In this document: piece by piece, positions 19,991 to 64,000 of the stretch
Numbering within the stretch: position 1 is the first letter of the stretch
How the letters are laid out: each line of letters opens with the position of its first letter
Assembly: GCA_021731365.1 (NCBI GenBank)
Contig: JAKFXL010000036.1
Span: forward strand, 2,503-66,502
Length of the DNA stretch: 64,000 nt
Reading direction: 5' to 3'
Source: Gammaproteobacteria bacterium
Lineage (GTDB): Bacteria > Pseudomonadota > Gammaproteobacteria > Tenderiales > Tenderiaceae
The notes under the pieces: model-generated
What the model saw: the letters and a program-made list of their open reading frames with translations, nothing else
Told to the model about the DNA's origin: nothing
The model's database searches: none
Position numbers and translations under genes: made by a program

Positions 19991-22726
19991 CTAGGCGTTT
20001 TCCCCACTATCGCCACGGCGGCGCAGCCATTTTTCGATCCCTATTACGGTGTAGATCCCCATGCCGCCCGCCAGAATCCAGACCCATTCGGCCCAGCCGA
20101 TGGGGGCACTGCCAAACAGTTGGTTCATCGCGGGGGTGTAGGTGAACAGTAGTTGCAGCAGGATCATGGTGGTTACCCCAGCCACCAGCCAGCGGTTTGA
20201 GAAGAGACCGAGTTTGAGTGGTGAATAGCGCAGCGAGCGGCAGTTGAACAGATAGAAGAGTTCGCCAAAGACAAACATATTGACGGCGACGGTGCGCGCC
20301 GCTTCAATGCTTCTGTCGTGGCGGATGGCCCACTCAAACATGCCAAAGGCACCGATTAATAGCATCAGGCTGACCAGACCGATACGTGTCAGGAGTTCGC
20401 GGGTCAGGATGGGGGTTTGCGGCTGTCGTGGCGGCCGGGCCATGATGCCTGGCTCCTTGACCTCGAAGGCCAGCATCAGCCCCAGTAGTACGGCGGTGGT
20501 CATGTTGATCCAGAGGATCTGGACCGGGGTGATGGGCAGTGTGAGGCCGGCAAAGACCGCGACCAGTATCACCAGCCCCTCGCCGATATTGGTCGGCAGG
20601 GTCCAGGTGATGAACTTGACGAGGTTGTCAAAGACGGCGCGCCCCTCTTCGACGGCGGCCTCGATGGTGGCGAAGTTGTCGTCGGTGAGCACCATGTCCG
20701 CCGCCTCCTTGGCCACCTCGGTACCCCCCAGCCCCATGGCAACGCCGATGTCGGCTTGTTTGAGCGCTGGGGCATCGTTGACGCCGTCGCCGGTCATCGC
20801 CACCACATGGCCCTGGGCCTGGAGCGCTTCCACCAGCCGCAGCTTCTGTTCCGGCGAGACCCGGGCAAATACCGACGCCCGTTCGGCAACCTCCACCAGC
20901 TCATGGTCGGCCAGTTGCGCCAGGGCGTGGCCATTGATGGCGAAGTGGGCCAGCTCACTGTCAGCGGTGCCACTGAGGCCGATCTGGCGGGCGATGGCGG
21001 CGGCGGTGACCAGATGGTCGCCGGTGATCATCTTGACCTGAATGCCAGCCCGCTGGCAGGCGGCGACGGCGGCGATGGCCTCTGGCCGGGGTGGATCCAT
21101 CATCGCCTGTAGACCGATAAAGGTCATGCCTTCAGCAACGTCGCCATGGCTGATTGATGGGGCGGGTTCAGTGGATGACTTATAGGCAAAGGCAAGCACC
21201 CGCAGCCCTTGGGCCGCCATCTGTTCCACATCGCGGTGTACGCTGCTTTTGTCGAGTGCCACGGTATCCGTCCCATCGCCATAGGCATCGTGGCAGCGGG
21301 AGAGGATGCTCTCAACAGAACCCTTCATATATATAAGAGTCGCTGGCGCTGTGCCAGTATCAGTACCAGAGTGGTGGAGTGTGGCCATGTATTGATGCTG
21401 GGATTCAAACGGCACGGTATCAATGCGTGGCAGCTGCTGCTCCAGCGCCGTGTTTGAAAGCCCGGCCTTGGCGGCGGCGGTGATCAGTGCCACCTCGGTG
21501 GGATCACCCTCGATACTCCACTGCCCACCGTTGTCGATCAGCCGTGAGTCGTTACAGAGCAGTCCCGCCTTCAGGCACTCTAGCAGGGCCGGGTGTTGCT
21601 GAGGATCGATGGCGGTCTGCTCCAGGTGAATCTCCCCCTGTGGCGCGTAACCGACCCCTGTGAATTCGTAACGCTGGCCCGCAGCGCAGAGCTGTTGCAC
21701 CGTCATCTGGTTTTGGGTCAGGGTGCCGGTCTTGTCGGAACAGATCACCGTGGTACTGCCGAGGGTCTCAACCGCGGGCATGCGGCGGATGATGGCGTGA
21801 CGTTTTGCCATCTTGCCCACCCCTACCGCCAGCATGATGGTCATCGCTGCGGGCAGCCCTTCAGGTATTGCCCCCACCGCCAGTGCCACGGCGGCCATAA
21901 AAGTATCGAGCAGCGGTGTGCCGTGGTACAGCCCCGCCAGCACAGTCAAGCCGGCCAGCGCCAATATGACCCAGAGCAGGATGCCGCTGAAGTGGGCAAT
22001 TTTTTTGGTTAGCGGTGTGGCCAGTGTTGTGGCGCTGGCGATCAAGGCGTTGATCTGGCCGATTTCGGTGCCGTCACCGGTGGCTACAACTATGCCAGTG
22101 GCGGTGCCGTAGGTGACCAGAGTGGAGGAGTAGGCCATGTTGCTGCGGTCAGCCAGTGTTTTGGTTTGTGCTATCCGTTCGGGTTGTTTTTGGACCGGTA
22201 CAGACTCGCCAGTGAGTGCCGACTCATCCACCTGTAGCTCACGGCAACGCAGTAACCTCAGATCGGCGGGGACCTTGTCGCCGGATTGCAGTAATACCAG
22301 ATCACCGGGGACCAACTCTGCAGCGTTGATCTTCACCTTTTGACCGGCGCGGATGACAAGGGCGGTACCCTCCATGGCCCGCGCCAGCGCCTCAATCGCC
22401 TTGACGGCCTTTAACTCCTGAACAAAACCGATAATGGCGTTGGCCAGTACAACGCCGAAGATAACCCCACTGTCGACCCACTCTTGTAATAGAAAGGTGG
22501 TGATCGCTGCAACGAGCAGGATATAGATCAGGGGTTGATTAAATTGCAATAGAAACAGTGTGAGTGGGCTTTTGCCCTTTTTTAGCGTCAGGCGGTTGGT
22601 TCCAAAACTGCCCTGACGGTGGGTCACCTCAAAGGTATCCAGCCCCTTATGACCATCTGATTCCAACAGGGCGACCACTTCGTCGTCTGGCAGGTGGTGC
22701 CAATGCCTTGAGAGCAGATTGTCCAT
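19991..22726 (-). CDS. cation-transporting P-type ATPase (PIIA, Ca2+/Mg2+-type)
   Basis: 911 aa; 'DKTGTLT', 'TGDGVNDAPAL', 10-TM architecture. Confidence 0.9.
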   Translation of the reverse strand: MDNLLSRHWHHLPDDEVVALLESDGHKGLDTFEVTHRQGSFGTNRLTLKKGKSPLTLFLLQFNQPLIYILLVAAITTFLLQEWVDSGVIFGVVLANAIIGFVQELKAVKAIEALARAMEGTALVIRAGQKVKINAAELVPGDLVLLQSGDKVPADLRLLRCRELQVDESALTGESVPVQKQPERIAQTKTLADRSNMAYSSTLVTYGTATGIVVATGDGTEIGQINALIASATTLATPLTKKIAHFSGILLWVILALAGLTVLAGLYHGTPLLDTFMAAVALAVGAIPEGLPAAMTIMLAVGVGKMAKRHAIIRRMPAVETLGSTTVICSDKTGTLTQNQMTVQQLCAAGQRYEFTGVGYAPQGEIHLEQTAIDPQQHPALLECLKAGLLCNDSRLIDNGGQWSIEGDPTEVALITAAAKAGLSNTALEQQLPRIDTVPFESQHQYMATLHHSGTDTGTAPATLIYMKGSVESILSRCHDAYGDGTDTVALDKSSVHRDVEQMAAQGLRVLAFAYKSSTEPAPSISHGDVAEGMTFIGLQAMMDPPRPEAIAAVAACQRAGIQVKMITGDHLVTAAAIARQIGLSGTADSELAHFAINGHALAQLADHELVEVAERASVFARVSPEQKLRLVEALQAQGHVVAMTGDGVNDAPALKQADIGVAMGLGGTEVAKEAADMVLTDDNFATIEAAVEEGRAVFDNLVKFITWTLPTNIGEGLVILVAVFAGLTLPITPVQILWINMTTAVLLGLMLAFEVKEPGIMARPPRQPQTPILTRELLTRIGLVSLMLLIGAFGMFEWAIRHDRSIEAARTVAVNMFVFGELFYLFNCRSLRYSPLKLGLFSNRWLVAGVTTMILLQLLFTYTPAMNQLFGSAPIGWAEWVWILAGGMGIYTVIGIEKWLRRRGDSGENA

Positions 22727-40300: not shown

Positions 40301-41443
40301 ATGAGCGTATATCTCGATCATAATGCCACCACGCCGGTTGATAGGCGGGTGTTTGAGGTTATGTTGCCTTATCTGCAGCAGCATTATGGGAACCCCTCGG
40401 CGCTCTACCGCCGTGGCAGATATGCGCGACAGGCGGTTGAAACCGCCCGGGAGCAGGTGGCCCAGCTGGTCAATGCCCACCCCTCTCAGGTTGTGTTTAC
40501 CAGCGGCGGTAGTGAAGCCAATGGTTTGGCGATCAGGGGGGCAATCCCTAATATGTACTCTTTGGCTGTCAGTGCTGTGGAACACGCCTCTGTGCTGGAG
40601 AGCGCTCAAGCGGTTGCCCGTCAAGGGGTAAAGCTGGGGATTGTCGCCGTTGATGATAATGGCCGGGTGACTGAGTCCGCGCTGGCCTCTGCGTTGACGC
40701 ACCAGCCGCAGCTGGTCTCGGTGATGGTGGCCAACAATGAGACTGGGGTGGTTCAGGACATTGCTCAGTTAGCGCTGTTGTCCCATGCCCATGGCGCTCT
40801 GTTCCATACGGATGCCGTGCAGGCTGCTGGAAAGATGGTTCTGGACTTTAAGTCGCTGGGCGTAGATTTGATGACTTTGTCGGCCCATAAGCTCTATGGG
40901 CCAAAAGGGGTGGGGGCTTTGATCTGCGATAGTCGGGTTGAGTTGACGCCTCAGATCCTGGGTGGCGGCCAAGAGCATGGTATGCGTTCTGGTACTGAAA
41001 ATGTGGCCGCCATTGTGGGTTTTGGCAAGGCCGCTGAGTTGGCTGGCTGTGAGTTGGATATTCGCCAATCACATGTGAGTGGTTTGCGAAGCAGTCTGGA
41101 GCAGCAGTTGGCCCAGATGGGTGAGGTGGTGGTGTTTGCCCAACAGGTACAGCGCCTACCCAATACAGTGTTTTTGGCGATTCCGGGTATTGACGGTGAA
41201 ACGTTGTTGATGGAACTCGATAGGATGAACATCGAGGTCTCCAGCGGTTCAGCGTGTGATAGTCGTAAGATTGGCCCCAGTCATGTGTTGTTGGCAATGG
41301 GCGTTGATGAGTTGATAGCGCGCTGTTCGATACGAATCAGTTTTGGCCGTGATAGCAGCGAAGCTGACGTCACAGCGCTGGTGTCCGCGCTAAAACAACA
41401 GGTAGAGACCCTGCAATCAGCATCGTTGCTGGCATGGGTTTAA
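40301..41443 (+). CDS. NifS-like cysteine desulfurase (extra paralogue between iscR and iscS)
   Basis: 380 aa, class V aminotransferase fold, 'SAHKLYGPKG', 'SSGSAC'. Confidence 0.8.
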   Translation: MSVYLDHNATTPVDRRVFEVMLPYLQQHYGNPSALYRRGRYARQAVETAREQVAQLVNAHPSQVVFTSGGSEANGLAIRGAIPNMYSLAVSAVEHASVLESAQAVARQGVKLGIVAVDDNGRVTESALASALTHQPQLVSVMVANNETGVVQDIAQLALLSHAHGALFHTDAVQAAGKMVLDFKSLGVDLMTLSAHKLYGPKGVGALICDSRVELTPQILGGGQEHGMRSGTENVAAIVGFGKAAELAGCELDIRQSHVSGLRSSLEQQLAQMGEVVVFAQQVQRLPNTVFLAIPGIDGETLLMELDRMNIEVSSGSACDSRKIGPSHVLLAMGVDELIARCSIRISFGRDSSEADVTALVSALKQQVETLQSASLLAWV

Positions 41444-54360: not shown

Positions 54361-55782
54361 ATGAAACCTGTCATCGCACTTGTCGGCCGCCCGAATGTTG
54401 GTAAATCGACGCTCTTCAACTGCCTCACCAAAACCCGTGATGCGTTGGTGGCCGACTATCCCGGGCTGACACGCGACCGTAAATATGGCACCGGTCGGGT
54501 GGGATACAAACCCTATATCGTTGTTGATACCGGCGGCCTGAGTGGTGAAAAGGAGGGCATTGATGAACTCATGGCCGGCCAGGTGCAGCAGGCCATTGGT
54601 GAGGCAAACGCAGTGCTCTTCATGGTCGACGCCCGCGCTGGGCTCACCGGGGGGGATGAGATCATCGCCCGCCATCTGCGCCGCATCAACAAACCGGTCT
54701 ACCTCATCGTTAATAAAGTGGATGGTTCTGACGAGAACATTGTCACGGCTGACTTTCAGCGGCTGGGTCTGGGCCAGGTGATTGGTATCTCCTCATCCCA
54801 TGGGCGCGGCGTCAGCCACATGATGGATGTAGTGCTGGCCATCATGCCCGAGTTGGAGATTGAAGAAGAGGAGGCCTATGACGATACCCTTAAAGTGGCC
54901 ATCATCGGTCGTCCCAATGTAGGTAAATCAACACTGGTCAACCGACTGTTGGGTGAGGAGCGTGTGGTTGCGTTTGACATGCCCGGCACCACCCGTGACA
55001 GCATCTTTATCCCCTTCGAACAGGATGGGCAGAAATATACATTGATCGATACCGCCGGGGTACGTCGGCGTGGCAAAGTGAAAGAGACTGTAGAAAAGTT
55101 CAGTGTCATTAAAGCACTACAAGCAATCGAAGTGGCCAACGTGGTCATCATGGTACTGGATGCCCAGGATGGTATTTCCGACCAGGATGCAACCCTGGCC
55201 GGCTTTGCCCTGGAGGCCGGGCGTGCCATGGTTATTGCAGTGAATAAATGGGATGGGCTGGAGAAAGATGCCCGTAACAAAATGAAAGAAGAGTTGGAAC
55301 GACGCCTGCCTTTTCTCGACTTTGCCGAGATGCACTTCATCTCAGCACTGCAGGGGAGTGGTGTGGGGCTGCTGTTTAAATCAGTCAATGCCGCCTACAA
55401 AGCGGCCATGGCTGATCTGGCCACACCGGCACTCACGCGCATACTCGAAGATGCCGTTAGCCAACATCAGCCGCCGATTGTGGGTGGGCACCGCATTAAA
55501 CTGCGTTATGCCCATCAGGGGGGAAAAAACCCCCCCATCATTGTGATACATGGCAATCAAACCGACTCAGTGCCCGGCACCTACAAACGGTATCTGATGA
55601 ATGTATATAGAAAGGTATTCAAGCTGCATGGCACCCCCGTGCGTATTGAGTTCCGTTCCGGTGACAACCCGTTTGCCAACAAGCGCCGTGAAAACCTGAC
55701 CGTGCGCCAGGCATACAAAAAAAAGATGGAACAGAAATTTACCAGCAAGAGCAAGGGGCGGAATAAACCCGATAAGCATTAA
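54361..55782 (+). CDS. der: ribosome-associated GTPase Der (EngA)
   Basis: two G-domains 'GRPNVGKST'; KH-like C-terminus. Confidence 0.95.
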
Positions 55783-55887
55783 TCGCCGTATCCGGTTTTA
55801 GACGGGTGTAAAAGCGAGCGTAAACATATTGCGGTACAGACGTGCCCCCTCATATTCCTGTTAACAGAGTAGATAACCTTAGGCACT

Positions 55888-58800
55888 ATGCAAGAACCTA
55901 CACCAGACACTACAGTCGAGCCACCTGTCAGCGAAACCGACGTCGTTACCCCGGTTGCAGAACCGGCAGTGGCAGAGGCTAAACCCGTGCCAGTGCGGCG
56001 CAGGCGTTGGCGTGGCTGGCTGTTGGGGTTCACAGTGGTGGGGGCGATTATTGCTGGTGCTGTCTATTATGAGATGGAGCACTCAACACTACAGGCCCGT
56101 TTTATTGCCGGCATGGCGCAAGAGATGCGCTATACCGTTGAGTCAGGAGCGGCACCGGAAGATGAGATCCATTACCCCGGTAGCGGCCCCTTCGATTTAC
56201 GTATGGGATATACCGCACTGCCTGATTTTTTAACCGCACTGCAAGAGCGTGGTTACACCATTGACGCCCAGGCGCGCTGGTCAGAAAAACTACAGCAGAG
56301 CTGGGCGTGGGGACTCTTTCCCCCTTATCACGAAAAAGCACGTGCAGGATTAACCATCCACGATAAAAATGGTGACGAGCTTTATGACTCACGCTATCCA
56401 CGGGATACCTACACCACGTTTGAAGAGATAGCCCCACTCATTGTGAACACACTGCTCTTCATCGAAAACCGCGAACTGCTTGAGACCACCCATCCTCACC
56501 GTAATCCTGCCATTGAGTGGGACCGTATGGCACGTGTCACCAGTGGCCTCGCCCTTAACATGATCAGAACTGAAGATGAAAAACTGGCGGGTGGCAGCAC
56601 ACTGGCAACACAGATTGAAAAATATCGCCACTCACCCGACGGCCTCACCAGTTCGCCAATAGAAAAATTACGACAGATGGGCTCTGCCACACTGCGTGCC
56701 TATCTTGATGGCGAAGATACCGCCGTTGCGCGTCGCAATATCGCACGAGACTATATCAACACAGTACCGCTGGCAGCACGGAGTGGCTTTGGCGAAGTGA
56801 ACGGCATTGGCGATGGCCTGAAGGTCTGGTACGACATGGATGTCAACCAGGTCAATGCCACCCTTCAACGTAACGACGTTGATAGCGAAGGCACATTGGC
56901 CGCCCAGGCCATGGCCTACAAACAGGTGCTGAGCTTGTTTCTGGCGCAACGCCGCCCCTCATACTATTTAAGCAGTGCTGGTCCGCAACGGTTAAACGAT
57001 CTAGCCAACGTCTACCTTGAGCTGTTAGCCCGTGAACATGTAATCACCCCCGCGCTGCGTGATGCCGCCGCTGCCATATCACTACGGTATGGGCCACCCA
57101 TGTCACAACGTAATGCAACACCCTATGCCAGTGACAAGGCGATTAACGTTACACGCACACGACTCACCGGCATGCTGGAGCTTAAAAGTCTTTACGAACT
57201 CGACCGTACCGACCTGGCAGTCAACACTACCTTTGATAAATCAATGCAAAAAATTGTCAGCCAGACCCTAAGAAAAATGCAGGACCCTGAAGCAGCACGT
57301 GCCGCTGGACTGTTTGGTGAACGGCTACTGCATGAAGAGAACGACCTCAGCAAAGTAATCTACAGCTTCACCTTGATGGAACGCACCCCCACCGCCAATG
57401 TCGTGCGCGTACAGGCAGACAACTACGATCAACCCTTTGACATCAATGAAGGCGTCAAACTGGATCTTGGCTCAAGCGCCAAACTTCGCACACTGGTCAG
57501 CTACCTCAACATCATCGCCGCGCTGCATAAAGAGTACGCAGTGCTGGAACCGGCCGAACTGGCAAAAATTGCCGTTGCCAACAACAACGTTCTGGCACGC
57601 TGGGCGATTGATTACCTGCGCACCCAGCCCAAACGCGAATTAAGCGACATGCTCGCCGCTGCCATGGAGCGTACCTACTCCGCCAATCCCGGCGAGCAAT
57701 TTTTTACCGGCGGCGGAGTGCACACATTTGCAAACTTCGACAAACTGGATAACGGAAAAATTGTCACCGTCCGTGAAGCCATGCGTAGTTCCATCAATCT
57801 GCCCTTTGTACGCATGATGCGCGACATCGTTCGTTACCACATGCTGCAAATACCAGGCTCCACCGCCAAACTGCTCGAAGATGTTAATGACAAACGCCGC
57901 AGCGGCTATTTGGAACGGTTTGCCGACAAAGAAGGCAGCACCTTCATTCAGCATTTCTATCGTAAATACAAAGGCAAAGGGGCAGACGAAATCCTCGAAC
58001 TGCTACTCAAAAGCACACGCCTGACACCACCACGGCTCGCGCTCATCTACAACCGCACAGTCATAGAGCCGAGTGATGAAGCGTTCATAAAATTTTTCCA
58101 CCAATGGTTACCCGATAATAAAATGAGTGATGGGGATATCCAGTCCCTGTCACAACGTTACGGCATTGGCAGTTACAACCTTGCCGATCAAGGCTACATC
58201 GCCAGCATACATCCACTGGAACTCTGGACCGCCTCCTACATGGTGCGCAACCCCAGTGTTAAATCAGCCGAACTACTGGCAGCCAGCGCCGCAGAGCGTC
58301 AGGAAGTCTACAGCTGGCTACGCAAAACCCGGCACAAAAATGCCCAGGACATACGGATACGCCAACTGCTGGAGACAGAAGCATTTATTGAAATCCACAA
58401 AGAGTGGAAACAGCTCGGTTATCCCTTTGATAGCCTGGTCCCTTCATACGCCACCTCAATCGGCAGCTCAGCAGATCGCCCAGCGGCGCTGGCAGAGTTG
58501 ATGGGTATACTTGTTAATGACGGCAAACACCTGCCCACCGTACGCATCGACAATATGCGCTTTGCAGCGGATACGCCTTATGAAACAAGCGTCAAGTACC
58601 AACCGCCAGCAGGTCAGCAGCTGATTGACCCAAGCGTTGCCGCAGAAGCCCGCAAAGCGTTGAGAGACGTTGTTGAAAACGGCACCGCACGACGACTCAA
58701 ACAATCCTTCACCGACGCCGAAGGCAACATCATGGCCGTGGGCGGAAAAACAGGTACAGGGGACCATCGTTACGAAGTATTTGGCAGCGGCGGCCAACTC

Positions 58801-58989
58801 ATCAAATCAACGGTGATGAACCGCACCGCCACCTTTGTTTTTTATATTGGTGACCGCTACTACGGCACACTCACCGCCTTTGTCCCCGGTGTAGAAGCAG
58901 GAAACTACCACTTCACCAGCGGCCTGCCAGTACAGCTACTCAAAACATTGGCACCAGAACTTGCCCCTTACATACGTGGCGAAAAATAG
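55888..58989 (+). CDS. divergent class-A-PBP-like protein (GT51-like transglycosylase + transpeptidase motifs)
   Basis: 1033 aa; N-terminal disordered tail then a TM helix; 'GGSTLATQ', 'IARDYINTVP' (GT51-like); 'SSAK' (SxxK), 'SIN' (SxN), 'KTGT'. Confidence 0.55.
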   Translation: MQEPTPDTTVEPPVSETDVVTPVAEPAVAEAKPVPVRRRRWRGWLLGFTVVGAIIAGAVYYEMEHSTLQARFIAGMAQEMRYTVESGAAPEDEIHYPGSGPFDLRMGYTALPDFLTALQERGYTIDAQARWSEKLQQSWAWGLFPPYHEKARAGLTIHDKNGDELYDSRYPRDTYTTFEEIAPLIVNTLLFIENRELLETTHPHRNPAIEWDRMARVTSGLALNMIRTEDEKLAGGSTLATQIEKYRHSPDGLTSSPIEKLRQMGSATLRAYLDGEDTAVARRNIARDYINTVPLAARSGFGEVNGIGDGLKVWYDMDVNQVNATLQRNDVDSEGTLAAQAMAYKQVLSLFLAQRRPSYYLSSAGPQRLNDLANVYLELLAREHVITPALRDAAAAISLRYGPPMSQRNATPYASDKAINVTRTRLTGMLELKSLYELDRTDLAVNTTFDKSMQKIVSQTLRKMQDPEAARAAGLFGERLLHEENDLSKVIYSFTLMERTPTANVVRVQADNYDQPFDINEGVKLDLGSSAKLRTLVSYLNIIAALHKEYAVLEPAELAKIAVANNNVLARWAIDYLRTQPKRELSDMLAAAMERTYSANPGEQFFTGGGVHTFANFDKLDNGKIVTVREAMRSSINLPFVRMMRDIVRYHMLQIPGSTAKLLEDVNDKRRSGYLERFADKEGSTFIQHFYRKYKGKGADEILELLLKSTRLTPPRLALIYNRTVIEPSDEAFIKFFHQWLPDNKMSDGDIQSLSQRYGIGSYNLADQGYIASIHPLELWTASYMVRNPSVKSAELLAASAAERQEVYSWLRKTRHKNAQDIRIRQLLETEAFIEIHKEWKQLGYPFDSLVPSYATSIGSSADRPAALAELMGILVNDGKHLPTVRIDNMRFAADTPYETSVKYQPPAGQQLIDPSVAAEARKALRDVVENGTARRLKQSFTDAEGNIMAVGGKTGTGDHRYEVFGSGGQLIKSTVMNRTATFVFYIGDRYYGTLTAFVPGVEAGNYHFTSGLPVQLLKTLAPELAPYIRGEK

Positions 58990-59006
58990 GGTCGGTTAAA
59001 TATTAT

Positions 59007-59034
59007 CCCCTCCCTCTTACTTAAGAGGGAGGGT
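59007..59034. terminator. strong hairpin between the convergent PBP-like gene and intI
   Basis: CCCCTCCCTCTTA-CTT-AAGAGGGAGGG 12-bp stem; no clear U-run. Confidence 0.45.
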
Positions 59035-59131
59035 GGCAAGAGTGGCATCAAACCCAGTAACGGCCACTTCATCAGTAAATTAATATAGTGAACGGCACAA
59101 GGGTGAGGGGGCGCATCTGTGAACTGAGTGT

Positions 59132-60130
59132 TCAGCTCATTAACGCCCCAGCTAACGGACTAATCACCGCATTACCACCACGGTTCAATACATGAGTATA
59201 AATTTGCGTTGTCTTCACATCGCTATGCCCCAGTTGTTCCTGCACCGTACGGATATCGGCACCGCGTTGTAACAGATGGGTTGCAAACGAATGGCGCAAT
59301 GTATGGCAGGTAGCCTGCTTTTCAATACCCGCCTTTTTTACCGCAAGCTTCACCGCCCTCTGCAGACTCTTTTCATGCAAATGGTGGCGTCTAATCACAT
59401 CAGCCCTTGGATCTTGAGTGCGCTCCCCAGCGGGGAAAATATACTGCCAACGCCACTCGCGCGGTGCGTTTGGATATTTACGTGCCAAAGCATAAGGTAG
59501 ATACACCTCGCCATAGCCATCGGCTAAATCTTTCTCGTGCAGATTTTTAACGTACTGTAAATGTCGTTTTAACTGAATGGTAAGCTCATCTGCCAGTGTC
59601 ACAATACGATCCTTGCCACCTTTGCCATCAATCACAAAAATAGCATGGTGATCAAAATCCAGATGCATTACCCGTAATCTCAAACACTCCATTAGGCGCA
59701 GACCAGACCCATACATCAAACAGGCTGCTAGCCAATGTACACCACTTAGATTCTTCAATAACCGACTAACCTCATCGACCGTTAGCACCACAGGTAGTTT
59801 TTTTCTCTCCTTGGCCCGCACAGCCCCATTAATATCACCCAGTGGCTGCGCAAGTACATGCCGATACATAAATACCAACGCATTGAGTGCCTGATTCTGC
59901 GTGGCAGGTGCAACATTTCTCTTCACAGCTAAGTAAGTTAAAAAGGCACTAACCTCCATAGCCCCCATCTCCTTGGGATGGCGCTTATTGTTAAAAATAA
60001 TAAAACGCTTGATCCAGTCAACATAAGCATGCTCAGTTCTAATGCTGTAATGTTTGGTGCGGAGCACGTTTATTACACTTTCAAGAAATGGAGATGTTAT
60101 TTTTCTGCCTGAATTCATAAAGCCACCCAT
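59132..60130 (-). CDS. intI: integron integrase IntI (tyrosine recombinase)
   Basis: '[12 protein letters not shown]...RHP', IntI-specific insertion '[20 protein letters not shown]', catalytic '[12 protein letters not shown]...YTHV'; start taken at the Met at 60130 (alternatives 60118 or TTG 60148). Confidence 0.9.
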
Positions 60131-60135
60131 ATTGA

Positions 60136-60151
60136 CTGTATATAACAACAG
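60136..60151. promoter_or_regulatory. LexA box (CTGTATATAACAACAG) overlapping the intI promoter/start
   Basis: perfect CTGT-N8-ACAG palindrome, as described for SOS-controlled integron integrases. Confidence 0.75.
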
Positions 60152-60414
60152 TACTTAATATGAGAAGTAGCTGTCAAGCATGAAAAAGGACAGATTGGGG
60201 TATTTGGCATTATATGATTAAGTGGAATCTAATGATGGGATGAGAAAAATCTACCGATACCAAAGGTACAATCATTTAACTTTCATATGCTTATGGGTTA
60301 TATCCAGTTTTATTTTGTAGTTCAGACCAGAGTCGGGTATAAATAGACAAAAAAGGAAAGACCCCAAAGTGGGGTGTTTGATTACCCCACTTTGGGGTCC
60401 ATTAACTGTTAGCC
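60152..60414 (+). other. attI region (approximate), ending at a GTTAGCC core
   Basis: AT-rich region between intI and the first cassette; candidate crossover G/TT at 60408-60410. Confidence 0.4.
60360..60398. repeat. perfect 14-bp inverted repeat (ACCCCAAAGTGGGG-9 nt-CCCCACTTTGGGGT) within attI
   Basis: read directly from the sequence; lies 10 bp before the GTTAGCC core. Confidence 0.7.
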
Positions 60415-60447
60415 CCCTATTTTTAACCCACCACGAAAGGAAATAAT

Positions 60448-60963
60448 ATGAAACTGAAACTCACGTCACTCTCCCTCATGCTCTGCGCTGGCAGTGCAAT
60501 GGCTGACACAACAGTGCAAATGTCCATGGTCGATGCAAAGGGTGTTAGCGCTAGCGTTGGACAGGTATCAATCACTGAATCAAAGTACGGCATGGTGTTT
60601 TCGCCGTCACTGAAAGGGCTTCCCCCTGGGTTGCATGGGTTCCATCTGCACCAAAACCCAAGCTGTGAGCCGAAAGAGAAGGATGGGAAAATGGTTCCTG
60701 CGTTAGCGGCGGGGGGCCACTACGACCCAAGCGATTCTAAGCGCCATGACACTCCTTGGAGTGACGGTCATCTGGGTGATTTACCCGCACTCTTTGTGGA
60801 TGCAGAAGGCAATGCTAATCAACCTGTACTCGCCCCTCGCCTAAAGACGGCAGATCTTGCAAGTCGTTCGCTGATGGTGCATGTGGGCGGAGATAATCAT
60901 GCGGATCATCCTGCTCCGCTTGGTGGTGGCGGTGCGCGTATGGTATGCGGTGTTATCAAGTAA
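60448..60963 (+). CDS. sodC: periplasmic Cu/Zn superoxide dismutase (integron cassette 1)
   Basis: signal peptide; '[10 protein letters not shown]'; '[12 protein letters not shown]'; followed by attC. Confidence 0.9.
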
Positions 60964-60965
60964 AA

Positions 60966-61029
60966 GCCTAACTCTGCATTCGAGAGGGACGCGCCAAAAG
61001 CGGCGCGCCCCTCAATTTGAACGTTAGAA
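60966..61029 (+). other. attC site 1
   Basis: R'' GCCTAAC ... internal palindrome GGACGCGCC/GGCGCGCCC ... R' GTTAGAA. Confidence 0.6.
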
Positions 61030-61082
61030 GACTTCTTGGTTGTTAATTTTAATCTGTATTACCCATGAAAAGGGAGGCGGGG

Positions 61083-62120
61083 ATGAATTTTATAAAGCTA
61101 TGTATCGCCGGAGGAATTGCATTTATTGCTAATCAGGCTTTTGCTGATGATAAAGCAGAACTCAAAGATGTTAGGTTTGAAGGGACAGATTTAGAAATTA
61201 GCAATAAGTGCGAGGGGAATCCTGGCTGGCTATGTAATAGAGAAAGTAGACTACAAGCACATAAACCAAGCACTGTAGCTTGGGAATATACTGATCAAGA
61301 TGATGGTTCTCTTGAAGTTAATTACTCTCTCAGATACATGCTTGCCAGGCCTGACTGTTCTGTAGAAAGAGATAATGACCAACGAGAATGTATAAATGGT
61401 TGGTGGAAAAGGAATGAATGGTTTCTATCTTACTCTGGTAAGTTTGATTTCTATATGGGAACACGATATTCAGGTCCTGTTGTAAATAGAATTAGCAATC
61501 CAGCTCTTCACTGGAGAATTCACAATCCATCTTTCATGGGTGGCGTGGAGTGGCTAAATATAGCGCTGGAGCATAGATCAAATGGGCAAGTTACAGATTT
61601 TGACCTAAAAGACTCTAACGGAAATTACATTGCAGATCAGCGTTGGCAAGCCGGGGACAGAGCATATATTGATGGCATAAGCCGCGCCGCAAATTATTTT
61701 TCTATTGAAATTAAAGATGGTTATAAAACGGACACTACGGCATACAACTACTGGCTTAGTGCGAAAGCATATTTTACAGATGAATCCTTGGTTACATGGG
61801 GAGATAAGAAAGGATCGGATGTTAGGATTTTGGACTACGATGTACTTCGCCTAGCTTTTGTGGGAAATAAGTTTAAGGGTGAAAATAAGCAGTTTAAGCA
61901 GTTTGAATATGGGTTTGAATACACAATGGGAATGAAGGGGTTTGCCACTGATTCATTGGATGCTTCTTTATATTTTCCCTATGTATTCGGAAAAAGAACA
62001 TATTTCCCAATTAATTATTTCAAAGTCCACGTTGGGCCAATGAATGAACTGTCTAACTACACGGAGTCACAAACAAGCATTTATATAGGTATGAAACTGA
62101 ACCCATACCCATCATTTTAA
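61083..62120 (+). CDS. pldA: outer membrane phospholipase A (OMPLA), integron cassette 2
   Basis: RBS GGGAGG; signal peptide; active-site 'HRSNG'; C-terminal aromatic residue (…PSF); markedly AT-rich. Confidence 0.75.
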   Translation: MNFIKLCIAGGIAFIANQAFADDKAELKDVRFEGTDLEISNKCEGNPGWLCNRESRLQAHKPSTVAWEYTDQDDGSLEVNYSLRYMLARPDCSVERDNDQRECINGWWKRNEWFLSYSGKFDFYMGTRYSGPVVNRISNPALHWRIHNPSFMGGVEWLNIALEHRSNGQVTDFDLKDSNGNYIADQRWQAGDRAYIDGISRAANYFSIEIKDGYKTDTTAYNYWLSAKAYFTDESLVTWGDKKGSDVRILDYDVLRLAFVGNKFKGENKQFKQFEYGFEYTMGMKGFATDSLDASLYFPYVFGKRTYFPINYFKVHVGPMNELSNYTESQTSIYIGMKLNPYPSF

Positions 62121-62135
62121 CGGAATTAACACGTC

Positions 62136-62216
62136 TTCTAACAAGCGCGTGGAGTCGGACTCGCTACGTCGGCGCTTCGCGCCGATTCCGCTCGCCGCTC
62201 ACGCGAAGAGTTAGAA
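62136..62216 (+). other. attC site 2
   Basis: R'' TTCTAAC exactly complementary to R' GTTAGAA; GC-rich imperfect internal palindrome. Confidence 0.65.
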
Positions 62217-62563
62217 CGCAAAGGCACGTTAATAATTTCAGAGAAAGCTCGGCAGTCAGTTTAAGTTCGTAGCTCTCCCATGCTTCAGCATTGTTCGGTA
62301 TTAATCGGGTGTTTAGTATTTGTGCATCTAGAAACATTGAAAGGTGGTCACTTAATCATCTCGGGCATCTTGCTTGGTAGGCTCGCCACAGTTCAGCCAA
62401 AACCTTGCATTGTTCAAGGTTGGTGGTAAGTTAAACAGTATCGTATTTATTAAGGCCAATAGGCGGAAAGTGTGGAGGTCCACTTGAAGGAAAATCGTGG
62501 CGTTGTTTGGCAAGGAGGCGTATCAGTCCTTTCTAATATCCAATTCAATCAAAACATTTTGCT

Positions 62564-62668
62564 TTCTAACCAGCGCGGTCAAGCTGACAAATTTCCGCGT
62601 TCTTCGTTTGTGCTAAATAGCACAAGCCTCTCACCGCTCCAATTTGCAGCTTACCGCGAACGTTAGGT
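62564..62668 (+). other. attC site 3
   Basis: R''-L'' TTCTAAC-CAGCGCGGTCAAGCTG pairs with L'-R' CAGCTTACCGCGAAC-GTTAGGT, leaving one extrahelical base. Confidence 0.8.
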
Positions 62669-62676
62669 GCCCATAT

Positions 62677-63072
62677 ATGTCCACGCTCGAATCAATTAAT
62701 CGGCTCCTGTCAGTCGGCGCCACGCTCCTCGATCATGCAGCGGCGGAAATCCGCGACGCGAAGCTTGAGCCTGTTCGCGAGAACATTGAGAGTATTGGCA
62801 AGGCTTTGGCCGAGGTCTTTGAAATTCAGCACCAGATTTACAAGTTAAAACCTGAACTCACGCCCGAGCACCTAAAGCAGCCCAGTGAGCACTCTGCGGC
62901 CAATCGACTTCTCACCGAGTACATGTACAACGCCTCAGAATTCGAACTCGCTGGAAACATCGAACGAGCTGTCGCAATATTCCAAGAGTTCTTGGCGCTG
63001 GAGTCGTCGCCTCTGCATCGCGACATTGCAGCCGGTGAAATTGAAAGGCTTCGGAATGCCGCAGGCACCTAA
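62677..63072 (+). CDS. hypothetical alpha-helical protein (integron cassette 4)
   Basis: 131 aa, ATG just after the attC3 crossover; ends within the next attC. Confidence 0.5.
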   Translation: MSTLESINRLLSVGATLLDHAAAEIRDAKLEPVRENIESIGKALAEVFEIQHQIYKLKPELTPEHLKQPSEHSAANRLLTEYMYNASEFELAGNIERAVAIFQEFLALESSPLHRDIAAGEIERLRNAAGT

Positions 63073-63133
63073 CATGGCGCTCAACCTCGCTCCCTTCGGT
63101 CGCTGGACGGCGCTAAAGCGCCGCCGGTTAGCT
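63067..63133 (+). other. attC site 4
   Basis: R'' ACCTAAC ... GGCGCT/AGCGCC palindromic arms ... R' GTTAGCT (a second GTTAGCA lies 11 bp further on). Confidence 0.55.
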
Positions 63134-63153
63134 CTACGTTAGCAACTAGACTC

Positions 63154-64000
63154 ATGGGCCCTGAGTACGATGACAAGTTCTTGCAGGAAACTCTAGCCCG
63201 CGCTCTCGCGGAGGAAGATAGTTACTGCGTACCTAAAGGCATCATTCGCTTTGATTACGGAAACACCCATGGCTGGTGGGTGCGCGTAAAAAGAGACAAC
63301 ACCCCGTTCCGGCAGCTATTCAGCGATGGCAATGGCAGCATTGCTGATTCGCTGAATAAAGCCATCCTGTATCGGCATGAATTGTTATCGTCATTTCCTA
63401 TGACGATCAAAGTAGCTCATAGCAGGAGCCTGCCGCTTGAACCCGAGAAACGCATATTCAGGGTAGAAGAAAAAGGTAAAAAGCAACCGTACATTGCTTG
63501 GGAAGCCAAATGGTACGACGAGAACTATGCAATAAAGCATGCGCATTTCTCGGTTAAAAAGTTTGGCGAAGATGAAGCAAAAGCTCTGGCGCTCGCAGCC
63601 GCACGCAAAAATCACAACAGACGGCCAAAACTTACAAAGATTCCTGATAACTACTTCACACACGAGTGCAAGAAAATCCTTCGCGCTGATCTTGCTGTAG
63701 CAGCCACCATTAATAGCCGTAAATCCAGCACCGCTGGGAAACAACCGTCCGAAATCATCAGCACAGACCCTTTTGCTTTTGAGGGCGAGAGGTACCTTGT
63801 TCTTCATCGTTCCATCGAGAGGGATCGGAAAATTAGAACTGCAAAATTGACCGATTTCATTCAGAAGCATGGTTCGCTTTTTTGTGAACTATGTTCATTC
63901 AGGTTTTCCGATACCTACCCCTTTCTGAAGAAAGACATAATTGAAGTGCATCATATGGTTCCGCTGTCCACATTAACAAAGGTGACAGAGACAAAACTTA
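63154..64000 (+). CDS. twin AP2-domain + HNH endonuclease (integron cassette 5, 3'-truncated by the window)
   Basis: own translation gives MGPEYDDKF...GWWVRVKRD... / ...HFSVKKFGEDEAKALALAAAR (AP2-like) and ...FCELCSFRF...EVHHMVP (HNH); the frame is open to the window end. Confidence 0.6.
   Translation, partial: MGPEYDDKFLQETLARALAEEDSYCVPKGIIRFDYGNTHGWWVRVKRDNTPFRQLFSDGNGSIADSLNKAILYRHELLSSFPMTIKVAHSRSLPLEPEKRIFRVEEKGKKQPYIAWEAKWYDENYAIKHAHFSVKKFGEDEAKALALAAARKNHNRRPKLTKIPDNYFTHECKKILRADLAVAATINSRKSSTAGKQPSEIISTDPFAFEGERYLVLHRSIERDRKIRTAKLTDFIQKHGSLFCELCSFRFSDTYPFLKKDIIEVHHMVPLSTLTKVTETKL

Follow-up and report, generated by a model that had tools for sequence, protein, structure and literature searches.

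Does the end of this contig hold a complete integron that belongs to the chromosome and has recombined in the recent past? The DNA in question, referred to below as the window, is a stretch of 64,000 nucleotides (nt) of contig JAKFXL010000036.1 (assembly GCA_021731365.1) from a gammaproteobacterium of the family Tenderiaceae, and all positions are counted from its first letter. An earlier note, made from the letters alone, had described a chromosomal integron with a mixed cassette array at positions 59132-64000. The analysis indicates that this segment is a complete chromosomal integron, very probably with recent activity. It is one more representative of a well-known type of element, in a poorly studied, uncultured lineage of Gammaproteobacteria. 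An attI site lies next to the integrase gene intI, an array of attC sites follows, and the co-oriented cassettes are read away from intI, which are the features that define an integron.

Integrase, attI and crossover point

The integrase gene and the region between it and the first cassette carry the following features.

59132..60118, minus strand: intI, encoding an integron integrase of 328 amino acids (TIGR02249, 2A3V alignment, Pfam)
60136..60151, strand not assigned: LexA box CTGTATATAACAACAG, 18 nt upstream of the intI ATG, overlapping the likely -10 box (TACTGT) of the intI promoter Pint
60173..60178, minus strand: putative Pint -35 box TTGACA, read from the sequence
60132..60161, plus strand: candidate cassette promoter Pc, TTGACT-18-TAATAT, weak and not conserved
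60315-60343: second candidate Pc, TTGTAG-17-TATAAA, not conserved
60401..60414, plus strand: attI simple site CATTAACT-GTTAGCC, crossover at G60408|T60409

The integrase was identified by comparison with profiles and with a known structure. IntI matches the NCBIfam model TIGR02249 'integron integrase' with 483 bits (cut-off 265) over profile positions 1-313 of 315, and the XerC and XerD models give scores three times lower, far under their own cut-offs. Pfam recognizes PF13495 (SAM-like N-domain) and PF00589 (catalytic domain). The protein aligns over its full length with the structure of VchIntIA (2A3V; E 1e-110, residues 19-333), and the IntI-specific segment is present, aligned with and identical to its VchIntIA counterpart ALKEKYPNAPYEFRWHYLFP. 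The catalytic residues R141, K166, H272, R275, H298 and Y307 (numbering of the 328-residue protein) are all intact and identical to their VchIntIA counterparts R135, K160, H267, R270, H293 and Y302. The claim of a bona fide IntI with the IntI-specific insertion and its catalytic residues is thus upheld by TIGR02249 and by the alignment with VchIntIA that the earlier note had suggested, in which the RKHRHY set shows no inactivating change. IntI scores 332.7 bits with the IntI1 equivalog model NF011946, under the cut-off of 435, and is therefore not a class 1 integrase. Its closest relative among species-representative genomes, at 78% identity, is encoded in a metagenome-assembled genome (MAG) of Candidatus Tenderia, followed by integrases of Chromatiaceae, Thiodiazotropha and Pseudomonas (57-72%). 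The sister genome L101 encodes an IntI that is 100% identical.

The open reading frame (ORF) of intI can be extended to a TTG at 60148, and the likely start is the ATG at 60118, which is preceded by GGGTGG and was also chosen in independent gene calls on short public contigs. The public gene call on the source contig gives an IntI of only 275 amino acids (cluster representative P0208) that starts at Met54; the difference arises because the start was placed at an internal methionine.

Between intI and the first cassette the DNA is AT-rich, as had been proposed for the attI region, with a GC content of 0.35-0.37 (60000-60449) against 0.50-0.57 in the backbone. The gap contains a single GTTRRRY core, GTTAGCC at 60408-60414, preceded by CATTAAC-T. 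Two comparisons locate the exchange point within this core. L101 (CAMTWN010000020.1, GCA_947085515.1) shows the same order hisS-bamB-der-PBP-intI (PBP, penicillin-binding protein) and is 98.5% identical to the window over positions 55000-60414, after which the two sequences diverge completely. Its first cassette is a Gp49/helix-turn-helix pair (HigBA-like, toxin-antitoxin-like) and not sodC. The sodC cassette that stands first in the window occurs in an unrelated metagenomic array (L102), which matches the window from 60408 on. Because homology with L101 is lost after 60414 and homology with L102 starts at 60408, the exchange point was placed at G60408|T60409. The pattern suggests that IntI catalysed recombination between attI and attC. 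These two near-identical genomes, with a common platform and a difference in the first cassette exactly at the crossover, form a clean natural example.

A LexA box at the same position before intI was found in the related loci L008, L009 and L015 (alignment A1), and the -35 column block GTCAAG is conserved in the same alignment. Both the motif and the arrangement of the operator are as described for integron integrases (PMC3108266). The motif by itself is weak evidence, since the window contains CTGT-N8-ACAG by itself three times, against an expectation of 0.9. Given the motif together with its conservation, SOS control of intI is predicted on good grounds.

In the mechanism proposed here, IntI would be expressed from the promoter overlapped by the LexA box and would be switched on by the SOS response. 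The enzyme would recombine the double-stranded attI, at G60408|T60409, with the folded bottom strands of attC sites. Promoterless cassettes could be inserted or excised in this way, and their transcription would run rightwards from a promoter within the AT-rich spacer of 290 nt between intI and attI.

attC sites and gene cassettes

The pattern CTAAC-N40-100-GTTAG occurs four times in the 64 kb, always on the plus strand and between 60968 and 63142, where about 1.3 occurrences are expected in the whole window. The four sites are listed below, with the extra bases of L'' in brackets.

60966-61029, plus strand: attC1, 64 nt, GCCTAAC-TCTGC-ATT[C]GAG ... CTCAAT-TTGAAC-GTTAGAA
62136-62216, plus strand: attC2, 81 nt, TTCTAAC-AAGCG-CGTG[G]AG ... 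CTCACG-CGAAGA-GTTAGAA
62564-62668, plus strand: attC3, 105 nt, TTCTAAC-CAG-CGCGGT[C]AAGCTG[A]CAAATTT ... AAATTTGCAGCTTACCGCG-AAC-GTTAGGT
63067-63144, plus strand: attC4, 78 nt, ACCTAAC-ATGGC-GCT[C]AACC ... GGTTAGC-TCTAC-GTTAGCA

Read on the top strand, the layout consists of R'' (RYYYAAC-like), a spacer of 5-6 nt, L'', the variable part, L', a spacer of 5-7 nt and R'. Each L'' is one base longer than its L', and the extra base lies at position 16-17, counted from the first base of R''. In attC3 a second extra base is present too, and the two extra top-strand bases leave a G and a T extrahelical in the bottom strand. The R''/R' cores are intact in all four sites. The sites are heterogeneous, with lengths of 64-105 nt and poor mutual alignment; MAFFT applied to the full sites misaligned the arms. 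When bottom-strand folds were compared with shuffled sequences, attC1 and attC3 were more stable than the shuffles (z -3.5 and -4.4), attC2 was so with less clarity (z -2.1), and attC4 folded no better than the shuffles (z -1.3 to -1.6).

Four attC sites with complementary cores had been claimed. The sites themselves and the first three R' cores agree with that description, and the fourth R', given as GTTAGCT at 63127, does not: GTTAGCT at 63127-63133 is L', and the true R' is GTTAGCA at 63138-63144, 11 nt away. The correction follows from the homology of cassette 5 in three other arrays (L093, L091 and L092), which starts at 63136-63138.

A script model of attC, which asked for complementarity at 5 or more of the 7 R''/R' positions and then for a spacer, 3 bp, one bulged base and a minimum of 3 more bp, was applied to 80 related intI loci, and all but 4 of about 70 matches lay on the expected cassette strand and side. 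The sites were also searched for with covariance models. The first of these, R1 (44 positions, no variable loop), recovered no attC and nothing but short spurious hairpins, and was therefore replaced by R2, built from 31 of the sites that the script had found in these other integrons, with the loop written as N, so that only the R and L boxes and the geometry are modelled. The whole window was searched with R2 on both strands and with filters off, since the default filters lost almost all sites. attC3 ranked first (22.0 bits, E 0.0012), attC1 second (19.1 bits, E 0.007) and attC2 fourth, all three with exact ends, and the covariance-model test that had been proposed for the attC sites thus recovers attC1-attC3 in this surrogate form. 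Near attC4 the match runs to 63151 and misplaces the end of R' by 7 nt. Elsewhere, R2 recovered seven sites in the sister array of L101 and two flanking sodC in L102, and no site in the non-integron sodC locus L094. A search of Rfam gave nothing relevant. The seven matches in L101 belong to a different array (L101:14782-21422), in which the attC at 20179-20243 is 88% identical to attC1.

The attC sites and attI delimit five cassettes.

60409..61023, plus strand: cassette 1, 615 nt, sodC (60448-60963) and attC1
61024..62210, plus strand: cassette 2, 1187 nt, ORF for a protein like outer membrane phospholipase A (OMPLA; 61083-62120) and attC2
62211..62662, plus strand: cassette 3, 452 nt, no convincing ORF, and attC3
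62663..63138, plus strand: cassette 4, 476 nt, ORF 62677-63072 (131 amino acids, no family match) and attC4
63139..64000, plus strand: cassette 5, partial, AP2 + HNH endonuclease, ORF from 63154 with 282 of about 320 codons in the window

Four of the five cassettes hold a single plus-strand ORF that ends at or inside R''. Two of the boundaries coincide to the base with homology breaks in unrelated arrays, which supports the cassette limits. A mixed composition, which the earlier note had remarked upon, is seen in GC contents of 0.52-0.55 for sodC, 0.37-0.42 for the OMPLA-like gene and 0.54-0.57 for cassette 4. Its list of products (a superoxide dismutase, a phospholipase and a nuclease, with no antibiotic-resistance genes) holds with one change of name, discussed below, and no resistance family was matched in the NCBIfam and Pfam profile scans. 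The predicted cargo thus concerns oxidative-stress defence, the outer membrane and a nuclease, rather than antibiotic resistance.

SodC is assigned as a periplasmic Cu,Zn superoxide dismutase by NF007628 (209 bits, cut-off 165) and PF00080, and it carries a Sec signal peptide. Its cassette can be traced through several arrays. The copy in L102 is 95.8% identical, has homology limits at exactly 60408-61027 and lies behind another attC; copies in L105-L108 are likewise preceded by attC sites. The first cassette of L125-L127, beside an IntI of 48% identity, is a 77%-identical sodC. In L103, L104 and L106 the gene is accompanied by a mutated R'' or R'. Finally, in L094-L096 leuA and a guanylate-cyclase gene flank a sodC whose protein falls into the same cluster at 90% identity and whose nucleotide sequence is about 82% identical to the cassette. 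These copies have no attC, G|TTAAT recurs as their left junction, and their homology is restricted to the 5' untranslated region and the ORF (60418-66). Two histories would fit a sodC copy without attC: a cassette may have arisen from a chromosomal gene, or an existing cassette may have become fixed at a secondary site. The series of array copies, copies with eroded attC sites and an attC-free copy provides material on both processes.

The second cassette encodes a protein of 345 amino acids, read from the ATG at 61083 with GGGAGG upstream. It had been named 'pldA', a phospholipase gene. The protein itself has no match to Pfam PF02253 even at E 10, and neither the single sequence nor a profile of 34 sequences gave a direct Pfam or PDB sequence match. 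Among its homologues 21 of the 34 do match PF02253 (PLA1), with a best E of 1e-7. The AlphaFold model has a pLDDT of 85, and the best eight Foldseek matches in the PDB are all OMPLA structures (probability 1.0, target-normalised TM 0.66-0.74). The family shows no variation at H164 and S166 and almost none at N204, and together these residues form a putative His-Ser-Asn triad. The product is predicted from its model to be a distant OMPLA (PldA)-like outer-membrane beta-barrel. The likeness to OMPLA is supported by the fold and by family members, and in view of the missing direct Pfam or PDB match the name was changed to 'distant OMPLA-like'.

The sole plus-strand ATG candidate in cassette 3 would encode a hydrophobic peptide of 49 amino acids (62280-62429) and has no ribosome-binding site. 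The segment 62211-62563 may be non-coding or encode a small peptide. Neither cassette 3 nor cassette 4 yielded a match in PADLOC or PHROGs.

Cassette 5 encodes a protein with the Pfam AP2 domain that belongs to a family of about 320-residue AP2 + HNH proteins, common on short cassette-like contigs and in many cases located in arrays; this is the nuclease of the earlier note. It matches the PADLOC type IV methyl-directed restriction model weakly (E 1.4e-4) and is possibly a restriction-like endonuclease. The cassette recurs in three arrays, at 85% identity in L093 and 79% in L091 and L092, with homology from 63136-63138. That the array runs past 64000, as had been stated, is apparent from this cassette, which is cut by the window end. 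A 98%-identical copy, L090, supplies its missing 38 codons and its attC, which by that comparison would end about 218 nt past the window. In L090:1-110 the upstream attC shares with attC4 only the part from L'' onward, and unrelated sequence stands in for the R'' side; this points to an exchange within an attC or to a chimeric assembly. The source contig is 66,845 nt long, so that at most about 2.8 kb of further array can be present in that assembly. The DNA at the window end had no exact match in metagenome contigs.

Chromosomal setting and history of the platform

The flank next to intI carries two features.

55888..58989, plus strand: PBP1-like transglycosylase/transpeptidase gene, chromosomal flank, last gene of the conserved hisS-bamB-der-PBP block
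59007..59033, strand not assigned: GC-rich hairpin between the convergent PBP gene and intI

The platform thus lies downstream of a housekeeping block that is also present in the sister genomes L097-L101. The 59 kb upstream code for an Mrp antiporter (mrpA), AcnB, a P-type ATPase, tRNA-Asp, MutS, HscA, HisS, BamB and Der. Since these housekeeping flanks lie on the same contig and the same der-PBP-intI junction occurs in L101, the integron is chromosomal, as the earlier note had it. The internal junctions recur as well: short independent assemblies from several sequencing runs reproduce those of intI, sodC and the OMPLA-like cassette (L001-L003) and those of the OMPLA-like cassette, cassette 3 and cassette 4 (L004-L007).

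Several observations weigh against the reading as a complete and recently active chromosomal integron. R2 stands in for the IntegronFinder model, and the E-values that it gives are approximate. attC2 scored weakly (14.0 bits, E 0.15) and attC4, at rank 8, poorly (8.4 bits, E 4.5), and an unrelated site at 40729-40783 took rank 3 with 14.8 bits (E 0.09). No cassette promoter stood out, as matches to the promoter consensus were no commoner than in shuffles. Cassette 3 contains no convincing gene, its candidates being of 49-64 amino acids and lacking a family match or a good ribosome-binding site. The full array is not visible in the window. Finally, relatives of 95% identity lack the platform or have a different one. 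As to the match at 40729-40783, it lies far from the integron and is a local-end alignment; it is probably due to chance.

The low R2 scores of attC4 and attC2, together with the NCBI call of only 275 amino acids for intI on the source contig, could be taken to mean that the integron is decaying, with an integrase or sites that no longer work and cassettes that have become fixed passengers. The short call simply begins at an internal methionine, however, and the 328-residue frame is open, aligns with VchIntIA from end to end and retains every catalytic residue. All R''/R' cores are intact, and two genomes of 98.5% identity differ in their first cassette exactly at the crossover. Decay is therefore considered highly unlikely. 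Even less credence is given to a mobile integron, carried by a transposon or plasmid, or to a mis-binned or chimeric contig end. Such an explanation would draw on the position of the array at the end of a MAG contig and on the tendency of cassette arrays to break assemblies, but it is opposed by the uninterrupted 59 kb of housekeeping genes that the contig carries and by the der-PBP-intI junction reproduced in the independent assembly L101. Furthermore, the integrase is not IntI1-like (NF011946, 333 bits against a cut-off of 435), and neither Tn402/Tn7 genes nor resistance cassettes were found.

Another alternative concerns the history of the platform and not its nature, namely that it arrived recently, or replaced another element, at a recombination-prone spot after the PBP gene and is not a long-term sedentary integron. 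In the 95%-identical relatives (L097-L099) homology with the window ends at 59004/5, right after the PBP gene. At that spot L098 has a truncated intI of 64% amino acid identity (L098:11487-12112) and L097 an unrelated minus-strand gene (L097:14658-14867). The flank is shared by none of 80 related intI loci from genome contigs, and no shared cassettes or synteny were detected in these loci. The attC sites, which vary in length (64-105 nt) and sequence, are also unlike the uniform repeats of classic sedentary arrays. On the other hand, the 98.5%-identical sister genome carries an identical platform at the identical place, no transposase or insertion sequence adjoins the platform within the window, and the intI remnant of L098 could equally represent an old integron locus with divergent alleles. 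Recent arrival is accordingly a serious candidate that falls somewhat short of being the probable history. The comparisons show that the element is stable between 98.5%-identical genomes and suggest that it is not an ancient fixture of the wider lineage. As the 95%-identical relatives lack it or differ there, it does not appear to be an old, stably inherited resident like the Vibrio superintegron, and its heterogeneous attC sites do not fit a strict 'sedentary' pattern. The locus after the PBP gene looks like a replacement hot spot. With either history, the identification as a complete chromosomal integron is retained.

Inverted repeat beside attI and comparison with known systems

One element of the region between intI and the first cassette deserves separate treatment.

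60359..60400: perfect inverted repeat, arms of 16-17 bp, loop of 6-8 nt, ending 8 nt before the attI core

The predicted fold has an energy of -34.5 kcal/mol (z -5). In the close relatives L008-L015 a repeat occurs in the same place with different arm sequences, and a repeat at this position was also found in integrons whose IntI is only 57-78% identical. From clade to clade the arms change in sequence yet keep their complementarity. Similar repeats lie upstream of intI in L008-L015, L022, L024-L025, L031-L035, L037, L040-L041, L044, L048, L063 and L074. When a hairpin score of at least 20 and an end 4-16 nt before GTT[AG] were required, 17 of 72 upstream regions qualified, compared with 2 of 69 controls from the opposite side of intI and 5 of 360 shuffles. 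Pairing between the arms, counted by script, was 88% within loci, a value biased by the choice of best-scoring hairpins, and averaged 46% (maximum 65%) when arms were swapped between loci. The right-arm motif TTAC(G/C)CCAC(T)TTG is kept from the window to Pseudomonas.

A repeat of this kind next to attI is not described in two integron reviews (PMC8876359, PMC4792948), one of which notes a lack of knowledge about attI and the presence of accessory binding domains in some attI sites. The conserved hairpin points to a side of attI biology that they leave without description. It is tentatively suggested, with considerable doubt, that the repeat at 60359-60400 is an undescribed conserved attI module of a large gammaproteobacterial integron clade, in which the hairpin would be kept by compensatory change. 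With regard to its role, a hairpin in the top strand or in the transcript, which would form a leader on all cassette messenger RNAs, is plausible though not quite probable. An insulator against antisense read-through into intI would be a rather unlikely function, and so would an accessory module for protein binding, placed like DR1/DR2 in attI1. In the window a T-rich tail, on the minus strand only, follows the repeat and gives it the look of an intrinsic terminator; the tail is also present in three of the six closest relatives (L008, L010 and L015). A general role as minus-strand intrinsic terminator was ruled out, as the T-tail is absent in the Pseudomonas group.

A 25-codon upstream ORF with a GTG start (60369-60446) runs across the attI crossover to a stop codon 1 nt short of the sodC ATG. 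Though reminiscent of ORF-11 in attI1, it was set aside because it is not conserved in L008 and its start lies within the hairpin.

The integron resembles the Vibrio cholerae superintegron (VchIntIA/IntI4, 2A3V) in the architecture of its integrase, with the IntI-specific insertion and the catalytic residues, in the divergent layout of intI, attI and array, in the LexA box before intI and in its chromosomal location. In both systems the cassettes are mostly of adaptive or no known function and lack antibiotic resistance. However, IntI shares only about 55% identity with IntIA-type proteins of Vibrio (L064, L076), the attC sites measure 64, 81, 105 and 78 nt in contrast to the uniform Vibrio cholerae repeats (VCR), and the platform is not conserved in 95%-identical relatives.

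Closer relatives are the chromosomal integrons L008-L063 of environmental Pseudomonas (stutzeri/alcaligenes group), Xanthomonadales and sulfur-oxidising Gammaproteobacteria, which have the closest IntI proteins (57-78%) and share the inverted repeat just upstream of the attI core with its right-arm motif TTAC(G/C)CCAC. Their attC sites are of the same type, and the R and L boxes of one Pseudomonas attC (L027) are almost identical to those of attC4. These integrons occupy other chromosomal insertion sites, however, and have no cassettes in common with the window. Class 1 mobile integrons (IntI1) have the same functional parts and follow the same recombination logic, but a Tn402 module, resistance cassettes and a 3' conserved segment are absent here. 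In attI1 the direct repeats DR1 and DR2 lie upstream of the simple site (PMC4792948); the accessory element described here takes that position as an inverted repeat and not as a pair of direct repeats.

Among the cassette products, the protein of cassette 2 can be compared with the OMPLA of E. coli and Salmonella (1QD6, 1FW3, 7EZZ). According to its model it shares the 12-stranded beta-barrel fold, and the motif H-x-S-N-G and a downstream Asn are conserved across its family as in OMPLA. The protein differs from OMPLA in its low sequence identity (12-14%), and in about 90 extra residues, among them an N-terminal Cys-containing segment and an insertion between the Ser and the Asn of the putative triad.

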